A DNA stretch of 25,822 nucleotides from a virus (taxonomy: Duplodnaviria > Heunggongvirae > Uroviricota > Caudoviricetes): the IMG/VR virus record IMGVR_UViG_2585427774_000009, positions 1-25,822 of that record; one strand, given 5' to 3'. The position numbers and the translations under genes are program-made. This document shows positions 6,532-9,576 of this stretch, piece after piece (positions within the stretch are counted from its first letter, which is position 1; every line of letters begins with the position of its first letter). The notes below the pieces were generated by a model, which was not told the DNA's origin, ran no database searches, and saw nothing but the letters and a program-made list of their open reading frames with translations.

Positions 6532-7434
6532 TCAGTAGTTATGTACTGAAGGAGGTAATTCTTTATTCTTAAGTCTCATCCATGCGGAAAGATTCGTTGG
6601 TCCGTCTGGCTCATTGATATCAACATCTCGTGAGTGATTGATTAAAACGTCTCTCGCTATATCGATAATACGGGAGAACTCATAACCGCAGTCATGACAT
6701 CTGCCGGAATAGTTCGATTGAATTTGTTTCAGCGCCGGATACAGTTCGCGGAATAATGCCTGTGAGCGGTTGGCATAATCCCATAACCATACAAGACTGT
6801 TTGCTTCTTTTGCAGAAAGCTCGTTGGTTTTCTTATCTTGTTTGCCGATAAACTCGCCTTCAAGCACTACCCTGTGGATGTACTCTACTGCTTGCGGTAT
6901 CTGAGATGCATCAAGCTCTTCAATACTTTCCACGTTGAAACGCTGATGAATCATTGCATAAGCTTCTGGGTACATTAGATGCTTTTTGCTGACTAGCATA
7001 TTTACAGCATCACGAAGCGGAGTCCTGTCATCAACAGATGTTTTCTTACGTGCATTTTCTGCCTTTCCCTTCGTCCAGTAGTCATGCAGCACGCTAAAGC
7101 ATTCCTCCTGGTACTGAATCAGTTTATCACGGATGTCAGCACGAACTTTCTCAGGGTTGATGCTGAACAGCCATCCATTTAACTTCTTCAAAGGAAGGCA
7201 GAGTAGCTTACGAAGCTTCCCATCAGCGGCAACCATGTTCATATGAACACAGTTGAATTTGCTAATCTGCTTCATGAGTTTTGTTTGCTGCGTTGACCAG
7301 CTCATTCCAAGGTTTTCAACGATTGGCTTCATCGCAACATATGCAACTCCGGCAGCCATGGCGGTGATAATTTGCTGACCGTTGAATGGTACGTAAGAGG
7401 TGTTCACTGCTTCTAAAATTGCTATACTATTCAT
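6532..7434 (-). CDS. ant: Antirepressor Ant (P22 immI)
   Basis: ORF track gives a 322-aa ORF; the internal start [21 protein letters not shown] matches the P22 Ant N-terminus from memory and gives 300 aa, with a GGAGA Shine-Dalgarno upstream; position downstream of arc. Confidence 0.85.
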
Positions 7435-7502: not shown

Positions 7503-7664
7503 TTACGCGCCAATGCGCCCTTCCTTCTTAAAGCTTTCCATTACTCTCTGATAAATCTCAGAGTTAACAGACCGACCATTCTCTTCCGCCACCTTGCGGA
7601 CCAAATCCAATACTTCTTTAGGCCACCGCAAATTGAACTGCGGCATCTTGCTCATTCCTTTCAT
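7503..7664 (-). CDS. arc: Arc repressor (ribbon-helix-helix)
   Basis: Internal start of the 74-aa track ORF gives [53 protein letters not shown] (53 aa), which matches P22 Arc as I recall it (one conservative difference possible). Confidence 0.9.
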
Positions 7665-7678
7665 ATTCACCTCACAAT

Positions 7679-7699
7679 ATAGGTCCACCGTGGACCTAT
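7679..7699. promoter_or_regulatory. Mnt operator (Omnt), perfect 21-bp palindrome ATAGGTCCACCGTGGACCTAT
   Basis: Read directly; the core AGGTCCAC(C/G)GTGGACCT equals the published P22 mnt operator; lies between arc (start 7664) and mnt (start 7755), where Pant is expected. Confidence 0.75.
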
Positions 7700-7706
7700 T
7701 GAGAAT

Positions 7707-7727
7707 ATAGTAGAGTGCTTCTATCAT
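7707..7727. promoter_or_regulatory. Arc operator (Oarc)
   Basis: Plus strand reads ATAGTAGAGTGCTTCTATCAT, the reverse complement of the P22 arc operator ATGATAGAAGCACTCTACTAT as I recall it; located in the arc-mnt divergent promoter region. Confidence 0.7.
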
Positions 7728-7754
7728 GTCAATATACTAACTTGGAGTGATGGC

Positions 7755-8006
7755 ATGGCTAGAGATGATCCGCACTTTAACTTCCGTATGCCTATGGAAG
7801 TAAGGGAGAAATTAAAATTCAGGGCGGAGGCGAATGGGAGATCAATGAACTCCGAGTTGTTACAAATCGTCCAAGATGCTCTATCAAAACCATCGCCTGT
7901 GACTGGATATCGCGACGATGCAGAACGACTCGCTGATGAGCAGTCAGAGCTTGTTAAGAAGATGGTGTTTGATACGCTGAAGGATTTGTACAAAAAACCC
8001 ACCTGA
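7755..8006 (+). CDS. mnt: Mnt repressor (ribbon-helix-helix, maintenance of lysogeny)
   Basis: 83-aa ORF MARDDPHFNFRMPMEVREKLKFRAEANGRSMNSELLQIVQDALSKPSPVTGYRDDAERLADEQSELVKKMVFDTLKDLYKKPT, near-identical to P22 Mnt from memory; divergent from arc-ant. Confidence 0.9.
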   Translation: MARDDPHFNFRMPMEVREKLKFRAEANGRSMNSELLQIVQDALSKPSPVTGYRDDAERLADEQSELVKKMVFDTLKDLYKKPT

Positions 8007-8015
8007 CGGTGGGTT
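7992..8015. terminator. Hairpin terminator shared by convergent mnt (+) and the 355-aa gene (-)
   Basis: AAAAAA-CCCACC-TGAC-GGTGGG-TT; the minus-strand transcript would end in a U-run (plus-strand A-run 7992-7997); overlaps the mnt stop codon. Confidence 0.55.
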
Positions 8016-8019
8016 ACTG

Positions 8020-9027
8020 TTACTTGTCTGAATCATCCAGTTCGTCTGTTTTCACATCCTCAAACCTTGGATGCAGGCGATTCATTTTTGCAATAAAATC
8101 TGAATAGTCGTTAGATAGCTTCATAATCGTAACGGTTGATGACAGATGCTCTCTTAATTTTTGATATCCAATATTTGGCGTCAGCCCCTGAAACAACTTT
8201 GTACCTTTTGAGGCCTTTACGTTCTGCTTTTTAAGCTCCTCAAGGATGTTTGGTGCCAATCTCTTGTAGACGATATCATTTGTCAAAACGCCAAAATACT
8301 GAGGCCGGAAGCGGGGATTTTCCGGCGGGTATTCTAAGCCCCTTAACCTGAAAAGCTCTTCATAATAATCAGCAGGAAATGTTGTAATATAAGGTTGAAT
8401 TTCCTTTGCGACAAAGGCCTCGAGTATTTTGGCGAGTGCATCTTTTTCTCTATCTCGCTGGTAACCCGTCGCTTCATCAACAAGCGCTATTATTCCGACT
8501 TTAGCTAATGAGCGCACCAGAATTTCAGCTTTCTTGGCTGTCTCTAACTGGTTTGGCCTGGTGATAGCGCCTGCCTCTCTTGCCTTTAAATAAACATCGC
8601 AGACAAGAGGTATTATGGATGCGTCATAACCTTCCTGGACGGAGCCAGTAATCGTCTTGTATTTGACCTTATTGATCACATCCATAACATCTTGATTTAT
8701 ATATTTTTTAAGGTTTGCAGCATCCATAAAAGCGGGCATATTGATCACCCCCTCTTCTTGAGGTGCTCTACCCCCTCTTTGTGGTCGGCCAAATGCTTTA
8801 AAAACAGAAGCTTGTGATATGATACGCCGTCCATTTTCGAGAACCGCGACATCTAATTCCGCATCACCGATCTTTAACTTTCCCTCATTCGCAGATACGG
8901 GCAATAAAGCTTTTTCTTTTTTTGCGGCAACAGCCTTTCTTGAGGATTCTTTTCTTTGCTCTGCTGTCATTTTTGCCGCGCGTGCCTTACCGCCTTTGGC
9001 CTTCCCACTAACATCATCATTTTTCAT
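8020..9027 (-). CDS. Hypothetical protein with basic Lys/Ala-rich N-terminus and a C-terminal region resembling the P63C-type phage domain
   Basis: ORF track gives 8020..9087 (355 aa); the likely start is the ATG at 9027 or 9033 (MKNDDVSGKAKGGKARAAK...). The IALVDEATGYQRDREKDALAKILEAF segment resembles my recollection of P63C-domain proteins; unverified. Occupies the position where P22 carries sieA-region genes, between gp16 and mnt. Confidence 0.6.
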   Translation of the reverse strand: MKNDDVSGKAKGGKARAAKMTAEQRKESSRKAVAAKKEKALLPVSANEGKLKIGDAELDVAVLENGRRIISQASVFKAFGRPQRGGRAPQEEGVINMPAFMDAANLKKYINQDVMDVINKVKYKTITGSVQEGYDASIIPLVCDVYLKAREAGAITRPNQLETAKKAEILVRSLAKVGIIALVDEATGYQRDREKDALAKILEAFVAKEIQPYITTFPADYYEELFRLRGLEYPPENPRFRPQYFGVLTNDIVYKRLAPNILEELKKQNVKASKGTKLFQGLTPNIGYQKLREHLSSTVTIMKLSNDYSDFIAKMNRLHPRFEDVKTDELDDSDK

Positions 9028-9069
9028 GAGCATATCTCGTGTTGTGATTGATAAGTCAATCATACACAT

Positions 9070-9104
9070 GCACGTTGTAACGTGCAATATTTAAATATGC
9101 ACGT
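9070..9104. promoter_or_regulatory. Cluster of palindromic operator-like sites in a divergent promoter region
   Basis: GCACGTT-GT-AACGTGC inverted repeat (9070-9085), perfect 12-bp palindrome ATATTTAAATAT (9087-9098) and a third GCACGT copy (9099-9104); lies between the minus-strand 355-aa gene and the plus-strand 129-aa gene. Confidence 0.35.
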
Positions 9105-9186
9105 AAATTGCAAATCAGATAATGAGGAGACTTTCTCCCCCTTGCACTGACATCATGGTATCCTGCGCAAAACTAAGGAGGTTGGT

Positions 9187-9576
9187 GTGAAGCAATTTCT
9201 TACTGCTATGTTCTTATTCATATCTTTTGGGGCTACAGCAGAGTGCTGGGTCGTTGGAGATATGCGCGGAATAAGCTATTCAGAACGAAATAATTTCCAT
9301 CCGGAAGAAGATGGTTTTAGTGGAACATTCATCATTAAGACAAACGGTGAAGATGCCAGCATCACATATTCTGGGACAGATGCGGGCGGCATGGCTTACA
9401 AAGCATTGTCTAAAAACTCCATCATAGGAATCGGCGCGAATGGCGAAACTCAACGCGTTATCGACTCATGGGTAATACATCCAACTGGAACAGTTTTAAT
9501 GTCAAAAACCATTTCCGGTTATGGAAATATGGATTCAACCAAAGCTTTTGTTGGAAAAGTAAAAAGAAAATGTTAG
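9187..9576 (+). CDS. Hypothetical secreted (signal-peptide) small protein, opposite-strand moron
   Basis: GTG start preceded by a strong AAGGAGG Shine-Dalgarno with 6-nt spacing; N-terminus MKQFLTAMFLFISFGATA-E is a typical Sec signal peptide with an A-x-A cleavage site; transcribed against the late operon. Confidence 0.6.
   Translation: MKQFLTAMFLFISFGATAECWVVGDMRGISYSERNNFHPEEDGFSGTFIIKTNGEDASITYSGTDAGGMAYKALSKNSIIGIGANGETQRVIDSWVIHPTGTVLMSKTISGYGNMDSTKAFVGKVKRKC

Follow-up and report, generated by a model that had tools for sequence, protein, structure and literature searches.

A predicted operator array upstream of the P63C-domain gene of a P22-like prophage, with a site word that covaries with one residue of the encoded protein

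The window analyzed here, the whole 25,822-nt stretch of IMG/VR record IMGVR_UViG_2585427774_000009, is a P22-like prophage with a 100% match in Escherichia coli HZDC01, where it adjoins tRNA-Arg and intS. Next to ant, arc and mnt it carries a minus-strand gene for a P63C-domain protein (the P63C gene) and then a plus-strand gene for a small secreted protein, after which come genes 16 and 20 (Table 1). We focused on the DNA between the P63C gene and the secreted-protein gene, in which the word GCACGT occurs in both orientations. The copies, designated O1, O2 and O3 from distal to proximal, probably constitute operators through which the P63C protein itself controls its own gene by autorepression.

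Inspection of positions 8900-9400, together with a repeat search, located TGCACGT at 9069-9075 and 9098-9104 and ACGTGCA at 9080-9086, so that the GCACGT motifs reported in an earlier note on this DNA lie exactly where it had placed them. The inverted repeat given there as GCACGTT-GT-AACGTGC is also present, but its arms are one base longer each (8 nt); O3 and O2 together form this perfect dyad (9069-9086). Across the whole window GCACGT is not over-represented (8 copies vs 12.6 expected), and 3 of the 8 copies fall within 36 bp. The ACGTGCA cluster is the sole spot in the window where any 7-mer has three non-overlapping copies, in either orientation, within 40 bp. Judged from the window, the repeat cluster is real but no more than suggestive, because similar clusters arose in 23 of 300 first-order Markov simulations of the window (7.7%, p ~0.08) and perfect 8-nt inverted repeats are not unusual in it (4 observed vs 2.3 expected). 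When the window was scanned for further operators, as a test for a wider regulon, no second site was found even at 3 mismatches. An intrinsic terminator was considered as the identity of the 9069-9086 dyad and rejected: the terminator scan reported none there on either strand, and the dyad is followed by AATATTTAAATAT, not by a T run. The decisive evidence for the operator reading is conservation at homologous loci.

For the comparison we took 160 loci that encode relatives of the P63C protein, in genomes as well as in viral contigs, together with the DNA preceding each start. One order of elements is common to relatives with 55-87% protein identity (L102, L004, L103/104, L105, L113 and L005), namely a strong intrinsic terminator, ACGTGCA, ~12 A/T-rich nt, TTGCACGT-N4-ACGTGCA, a -10-like hexamer, a leader with CACAACACGAG and the ATG, while the flanking sequence diverges. 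The terminator of the relatives (GGTCGC..GCGGCCTTTTTT) lies directly before O1, at the position where the window has a weak terminator-like hairpin (-12.8 kcal/mol, z = -1.6), and the placement of O1 directly after it is kept in L102, L004 and L105. The leader element CACAACACGAG is almost invariant across the TGCACGT clade (the window's locus WIN and L102, L103, L004, L105, L113, L049, L170 and L233), its surroundings diverging; no obvious Shine-Dalgarno (SD) sequence or conserved hairpin accounts for it. More distant homologues, from Proteobacteria, Actinobacteria, Chloroflexi, Acidobacteria, Planctomycetes and others, bear 3-4 copies of a 10-bp pseudo-palindrome, ATGCAAGCAT/ATGCTTGCAT or variants.

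Two other repeats of the region did not stand up to the same comparison. The perfect 12-bp palindrome ATATTTAAATAT between O1 and O2, which the earlier note had counted among the binding sites, corresponds in relatives to an A/T-rich spacer of 11-13 nt (AAAAAATTATGT, AAAATAAAAAT or AAAATAATTAT) that is neither conserved in sequence nor palindromic; because of this, its palindromy is taken as a lineage-specific accident within an A/T-rich stretch that would serve as a spacer or UP-like element. The perfect inverted repeat at 9045-9062 is not kept in relatives either, which have another weak repeat there (GCTCG...CGAGC). The latter was examined as a possible 5'-leader hairpin and set aside, its pairing being inconsistently kept in relatives and absent in the window.

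Enrichment of the sites was measured in 111 non-redundant P63C loci, for which the 130 nt upstream were compared with three control regions. There were 259 nCnTGCA sites upstream vs 30-32 per control region, and 55 loci had at least 3 sites upstream vs 0-2 in the controls. Core-to-core spacings in the family peak at 14-15 and 24-27 bp, and the layout of the window (> < >, with spacings of 15 bp between O1 and O2 and then 14 bp) fits these peaks. The sites have fixed positions, on a -35-like TTGCAn, next to the -10 and close to the start codon. Furthermore, a scan of viral contigs for TGCACGT-N4-ACGTGCA retrieved 22 loci with a P63C gene, and in all 22 the dyad lay 42-70 nt upstream of that gene; 4 of the 22 were new P63C homologues of 37-51% identity. 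The other 58 dyads of the viral contigs come with no P63C gene; they either match by chance or belong, as operators, to unrelated XRE/Cro genes. Thus, the number, orientation and spacing of the GCACGT copies are kept upstream of P63C homologues (37-87% identity) and the copies overlap a predicted sigma-70-like promoter of the minus-strand gene, which bears out the earlier note's reading of an operator array; conservation of the motif at homologous loci, a check set beforehand, was found across P63C loci although the surrounding non-coding DNA diverges. The note had proposed P22-like prophages as the place to look for this conservation. No record of the phage collection covered at least 80% of the query region, and the element is a feature of the P63C family, not of a P22-specific locus.

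The same dyad word was seen in a second setting. In contigs L164, L176, L183, L191, L195, L202, L210, L225, L229, L231 and L237, and also in L185, the dyad TGCACGTTATAACGTGCA with a third TTGCACGT half-site ~30 nt off stands 44 nt upstream of an 80-aa XRE/Cro-type gene, a member of an unrelated regulator family with the same operator word.

We then grouped the P63C proteins by the site word of their loci, AGC for loci with TGCAAGC and CGY for loci with TGCACG[TC]. Residue 28 was Ile in 38 of 38 AGC loci and Ser or Ala in 12 of 12 CGY loci, and its mutual information with the site word, 0.80-0.82 bits, was about the maximum. Residue 20 followed (Leu in AGC and Met in CGY loci; 0.48-0.57 bits), and every other N-terminal position reached 0.34 bits or less. 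On a tree built from residues 45-335 only, residue 28 and the site word change 8 times with zero discordance. When positions 20 and 28 were left out, the eight CGY clades resembled AGC loci in their N-terminal blocks (0.47) about as much as they did one another (0.51), and 5 of the 8 have an AGC-type nearest neighbour; by this comparison, cassette hitch-hiking as the cause of the covariation was ruled out for most clades, though not for WIN, L151 and L006. Data not used for the grouping agreed. All 4 of the new homologues retrieved by the dyad have Ser or Ala at position 28, and among 64 independent non-redundant metagenome loci, counted if they had at least 2 sites, Ile went with AGC in 19/19 and Ser with CGY in 2/2. 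After the shared ATGC core, other residues at position 28 have words of their own (ATGCTAA for Arg, TGCTAGCA for Asn, ATGCCAGCA for Leu and AGCAAGCAT for Val). Because the site word tracks residue 28 of the P63C protein itself, this protein is the putative binder, in support of a suggestion made in the earlier note for the basic protein encoded here.

A natural operator variant was seen in L089 (IMGVR_UViG_2667528074_000004), which has a 99.7% identical P63C gene: its O2 reads TGCACGC, not TGCACGT, and the spacer of its dyad is TATA, not TACA. The locus remains in the Ser-type (CGY) class.

The product of the P63C gene matches PF10546 over the entire profile (1-93/93; E = 9e-24, 84 bits vs a cutoff of 26) and PHROG 2384, annotated 'unknown function', over positions 2-337/338 (E = 1.8e-146), and has a faint similarity to a PHROG Ant family (E = 0.0027). 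The P63C domain occupies residues 201-291, outside the region of the protein that covaries with the DNA. A basic N-terminal motif, GGKARAAKMTAEQRKESSRKAV, contains residues 20 and 28 as well as the invariant Arg16 and Arg25; an AlphaFold (AF2) model places helices at 9-19 and 22-40, with a predicted local distance difference test (pLDDT) score of 81-89 for the block over residues 11-40. Pfam and NCBIfam have no family covering this motif, and no sequence or fold match to it was found among curated DNA-binding families (helix-turn-helix (HTH), ribbon-helix-helix (RHH), MerR, KilA-N and others). A motif profile gave nothing significant against the PDB; the N-terminal helix of Streptomyces sIHF came up at E = 0.88. 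Alignments of 28 and of 101 homologues both place the start of the protein at ATG 9027. The 349-aa product (1050 nt) of RefSeq/PGAP starts at ATG 9069, inside O3 (NC_000924 ST933Wp35; NZ_CP118681 PVY36_RS07390); this start is probably wrong, because more than 100 homologues align with the 9027 start.

On the DNA side, a P63C promoter with a 17-nt spacer is predicted on the minus strand, with transcription starting near 9052; its -10 ends 31 nt before the ATG, as is typical of the family (~30 nt), and O1 lies ~45-52 bp upstream of the predicted start. Family-wide, 36% of the TTGCAn words within sites have a -10-like hexamer 16-18 nt further on, vs 7% in shuffles, and in 13 loci the last T of the -10 is also where the next site starts (TATAATgcaagcat is an example). 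A generic promoter scan was silent on the window promoter, because its score of 8/12 falls below the threshold of 9/12.

Taken together, these observations point to a mechanism in which O1, O2 and O3 would be the operators of the minus-strand P63C promoter, recognized by the P63C protein through its N-terminal two-helix motif (residues ~8-40). Helix 2, with the invariant Arg25 and the specificity residue 28 (Ser in the window), would read the sites. With O2 over the -35 and O3 in the spacer, an occupied array should keep RNA polymerase off the promoter, and the resulting negative autoregulation would fix the gene's expression at a set level. The plus-strand secreted-protein gene would use its own signals. 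Promoter, operators, gene and terminators would travel between phage genomes as a 1.2-kb cassette, which, being self-contained, would work both in the nin region of the Shiga toxin (Stx) phage 933W and in the immI-gene 16 gap of the window. The comparative sequence data show the linkage of the sites to the gene, their conservation, enrichment and geometry, and the covariation with the protein; physical binding, the start of transcription and repression as the direction of regulation are what we infer from them.

Several points weigh against autorepression by the P63C protein or limit its reach. WIN, L151 and L006 may share one origin of their N-terminus, and because of this the number of independent switches falls to ~5-6. 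Ala at position 28 is ambiguous, as L283 (Ala28, Leu20) has three AGC sites, and about one third of the Ile-type validation loci have no site scorable under the simple pattern. The window promoter is weak by consensus, and in the closest relatives the best -10 (TATAAT) stands 19 nt from TTGCAC, which makes the promoter assignment in this clade uncertain; because of the low score, the miss by the generic scan and this 19-nt distance, the window promoter and its start site are to be read as predictions. Read-through from pR transcribes the array in 933W, and because such an RNA would fold stably (z = -3.8), the array may have an added role at the RNA level.

Table 1. Genes, predicted signals and repeats at the P63C locus (positions in the 25,822-nt window)
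Feature	Position	Strand	Details
ant	6532-7434	-	
arc	7503-7664	-	
mnt	7755-8006	+	
Mobile module	7973-9176	-	1.2 kb; terminator, P63C gene, promoter and operators, upstream hairpin
Bidirectional intrinsic terminator	7996-8015	both	Common to mnt and the P63C gene; terminator scan
P63C-domain protein gene	8020-9027	-	335 aa; ATG at 9027
N-terminal basic two-helix motif	8908-9006	-	Residues 8-40, GKAKGGKARAAKMTAEQRKESSRKAVAAKKEKA; putative DNA-reading module
Ser28 codon	8944-8946	-	
Met20 codon	8968-8970	-	
Leader element CACAACACGAG	9036-9046	-	9-19 nt 5' of the ATG
Perfect inverted repeat TGATTGA-taag-TCAATCA	9045-9062		Across the -10/start region; repeat search, missed by the earlier note
Predicted -10, TATGAT	9059-9064	-	5/6 consensus matches; 17-nt spacer
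Putative operator O3 (proximal)	9068-9075		Plus strand ATGCACGT; inside promoter spacer
Perfect inverted repeat TGCACGTT-gt-AACGTGCA	9069-9086		Arms of 8 nt; repeat search
Putative operator O2	9079-9087		Plus strand AACGTGCAA, gene orientation TTGCACGTT; overlaps -35 hexamer
Predicted -35, TTGCAC	9082-9087	-	3/6 consensus matches, TTG kept
A/T-rich O1-O2 spacer, perfect 12-bp palindrome ATATTTAAATAT	9087-9098		UP-element position; repeat search
Putative operator O1 (distal)	9097-9104		Plus strand ATGCACGT, gene orientation ACGTGCAT
Weak terminator-like hairpin GGAGA-aag-TCTCC, then AUUAUCUGAUUU	9124-9140	-	Upstream edge of the module
Secreted-protein gene signals	9156-9189	+	Extended -10 TGGTATCCT at 9156-9164; SD AAGGAGG at 9175-9181; GTG at 9187
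Secreted-protein gene	9187-9576	+	129 aa; PHROG 2651, gp38-like; GTG start

The inverted repeats could instead act in RNA, attenuating transcription or covering the ribosome-binding site (RBS) through leader hairpins or through alternative pairings, the protein possibly binding RNA. The sites are indeed mutually complementary, a fold of -25.2 kcal/mol (z = -3.8) is calculated for the minus-strand RNA 9110-9028, many distant loci have their last site across the SD or the start codon, and in 933W the array is transcribed from the early operon. The folding energies, however, were discounted as support, since they merely restate the palindromes. Mismatches between the arms comprise 25 G.T and 23 A.C pairs, and because they lack a G.U bias, duplex DNA is favoured over RNA stems. 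Moreover, T.T and A.A mismatches are frequent at the central dinucleotide, where AA/TT is often unpaired with its orientation not kept, and the ATGC/TGCA core is invariant across phyla, unlike freely covarying stems. At least 2 of the sites coincide with the predicted -35 and -10 or precede them, which places these sites outside the gene's own transcript, and the predicted own leader (9056-9028) is unstructured. A comparison with Rfam 15 gave best matches of 15-20 bits, vs gathering thresholds of 45-80, with E = 1.9-8. We therefore regard action in RNA as unlikely.

A different protein might bind the sites, with the P63C gene as its target: a host factor, a CI-type repressor, Arc or Mnt, or a small neighbour protein bearing the same motif. 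Candidates are at hand. A CI-like repressor gene lies just upstream in 21 of the 111 loci, a small convergent protein with a GGxARA..LTxExRxEIA motif is encoded downstream in 19, unrelated XRE/Cro genes have the same 18-bp dyad elsewhere, and in the window the P63C gene adjoins arc and mnt. Yet no gene next to P63C recurs in more than 19% of loci (21/111 at most) and the mobile module has no other gene, so that P63C alone accompanies the sites throughout. The sites occur in hosts of many phyla, which makes a shared host factor unlikely; the Arc and Mnt operators, at ~7680-7730, are unrelated in sequence; and the site word follows the P63C residue through ~8 switches. Binding by another protein is thus improbable, in contrast to recognition by the P63C protein.

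Where it occurs, the CI-like (HTH_3) gene is co-oriented with the P63C gene, with a strong terminator between them (e.g., in L102, at -871 to -157 from the P63C start). P63C after an immunity repressor occupies the place of rexAB in lambda.

The earlier note had described the region as a divergent promoter region controlling one or both genes, and a shared bidirectional control region would also regulate the plus-strand secreted-protein gene. The description is locally true, the two genes being divergent and 159 bp apart, with O1 ~55 bp upstream of the plus-strand extended -10, but its left and right parts belong to separate mobile modules. 933W and 16 further Stx-phage records match the left part (7973-9176) at 99.3% identity. 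A DNA methyltransferase gene and roi flank the P63C gene in the nin region of 933W, where it has the direction of the early operon, with no divergent gene beside it and without the secreted-protein gene. The sites recur with at least 4 different left flanks, the module having several different flanks in L088, L089, L090 and L096, and its composition is not distinct (GC content 0.40-0.46 vs 0.43-0.46 in the flanks). The right part, from 9151 rightward, matches Salmonella phages Emek and ST-35, in which the secreted-protein gene has the same extended -10 and RBS while the upstream DNA is unrelated and lacks GCACGT. On these matches, the 9151-9176 junction is a putative recombination boundary, with the DNA on either side of ~9150-9176 derived from different mobile modules. 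Because the region is a junction of two modules, the palindromes belong to the P63C gene and not to a shared divergent region. Shared control of both genes, as the note had envisaged, is accordingly not borne out, and bidirectional regulation has a low probability.

That the repeats are chance palindromes or plain promoter hexamers without any regulator is very improbable: the cluster is only marginally unusual in the window and TTGCAn doubles as a -35 hexamer, but comparative data already contradict chance, with ~eight-fold enrichment over controls in the 111 loci, 3-4 copies in both orientations at fixed spacing, and a site word that covaries with a protein residue.

Autorepression by the P63C protein raises the question of what its N-terminus is. 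We tentatively suggest, as a possibility with somewhat less than even odds, that the ~30-residue motif GGxARAxx[LM][TS]xExRxx[I/S/R/N/L]Axx(A/G)AxxRW may be an undescribed, portable, sequence-specific DNA-binding module with a near one-residue code, in which position 28 would read 3 bp beside the invariant ATGC core. The motif is regarded as portable because it is also found in small proteins and in proteins with tandem copies. Small proteins of 75-105 aa with the pattern MPKGPKGEKRPADVIGNAV..IATGE..GGKARAxxLTPEERSEIAKKAAxxRW are encoded convergently just downstream of P63C in the 19 loci mentioned above (e.g., in L036, ~1034-1271 nt after the P63C start), and at their C-terminus they carry the motif that stands at the N-terminus of P63C. 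They match no family of Pfam or NCBIfam. Four proteins of 114-251 aa (P0128, P0129, P0130 and P0133) have two tandem GGxARAxxLTxExRxxIARKA copies and no P63C domain. A motif-only phmmer search, with a 45-aa query that is too short, gave 16 matches among 1.8 billion representatives, some of them tandem-motif proteins.

Autoregulated promoters with operator arrays are classical, as in Arc/Mnt and lambdoid OR. Arc and Mnt of P22 immI are RHH repressors that autoregulate and control Pant. The P63C array resembles their operators in that short palindromic sites lie over sigma-70 promoters with the regulator encoded beside them, and it occurs in the same neighbourhood, arc and mnt occupying 7503-8006 of the window. 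In contrast, the P63C N-terminus matches no RHH/Arc family, the predicted reader being a two-helix motif at the head of a 335-aa protein, and 3-4 copies of a 9-10-bp word with an ATGC core take the place of a single 21-bp dyad. The lambdoid OR1-3 operators of CI and Cro likewise comprise several similar sites at helical-phase spacing over the -35, the -10 and upstream, with autoregulation implied. However, P63C lacks an HTH_3/Cro fold and has one promoter instead of two divergent ones; its predicted array has no sign of cooperativity or of a switch, and its cassette, 1.2 kb long with a single gene, moves from one phage region to another.

In this last respect the module is closer to morons, which Juhala, Hendrix and colleagues reportedly described as autonomous promoter-gene-terminator inserts in lambdoid and P22-like phages. 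It too consists of a single gene with its own promoter and with terminator-like hairpins at its bounds, and it occupies unrelated positions, the sieA-type gap between mnt and gene 16 in the window vs the nin region in 933W. Unlike morons, it is not distinct in composition, and it has its own operator array, which is outside the moron definition. In MerR-type promoters the operator dyad lies inside an over-long 19-bp spacer. A dyad between -35 and -10 is common to these promoters and the P63C promoter, and the closest relatives have 19 nt between TTGCAC and TATAAT; the window differs in its 17-nt spacer, in having no MerR-family match and in the extra sites outside the spacer. MerR-like activation by DNA distortion would be pure speculation here. 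This element, its universality in the P63C family, and the reading motif with its single specificity position appear to be undescribed. Within the library of papers searched, nothing was found on P63C function or on 933W L0095, phage papers mentioning the domain merely in passing ('P63C' being swamped by papers on p63 and crystallography).

P63C proteins form a very large prophage family (more than 7,600 matches in one search), with no function assigned under PHROG 2384 and with one member in the nin region of 933W. From one residue of their unannotated N-terminal motif the sequence of a deeply conserved cis-element can be predicted, and this gives a biochemical handle on the family, a putative DNA-binding activity with predictable targets, as well as a route to annotating promoters, operators and correct start codons in thousands of prophage genes. 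The motif is also a candidate new DNA-recognition module, found outside P63C proteins too. If the proposed reading is true, the motif, which heads thousands of P63C proteins in many phyla, would define a new and widespread group of self-regulating phage regulators with targets predictable from sequence.

Some further observations concern the bounds of the module and its neighbours. A search of the P63C and secreted-protein genes against PADLOC defence models gave noise only (E >= 0.006). Downstream of P63C in the 933W nin region, the terminal 34 nt of mnt recur together with the bidirectional terminator (window 7973-8016); this 44-bp overlap with P22-type sequence suggests that the Stx-phage module may derive from a P22-like immI context, or the reverse. 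At the other bound, TGGTATCCTGCGCAAAACTAAGGAGGTTGGTGTG (9156-9189), which comprises the extended -10, a short leader, a strong SD and the GTG, is a conserved expression cassette: in L090 and L096 it heads different small membrane or secreted cargo genes, and the P63C module of 933W is likewise bordered by its first 21 nt. The cassette resembles a recombination boundary at which cargo is swapped at the sieA-type locus. In L036, which has Ala28-type CGC sites and one AGC site, the small motif-bearing protein is of the Ile type, a hint that one locus may have two readers. Finally, in 18 of the 111 loci (e.g., L047, -1008 to -81) a divergent gene upstream encodes a protein of ~300 aa with an N-terminal HTH_38/transposase-like helix-turn-helix.

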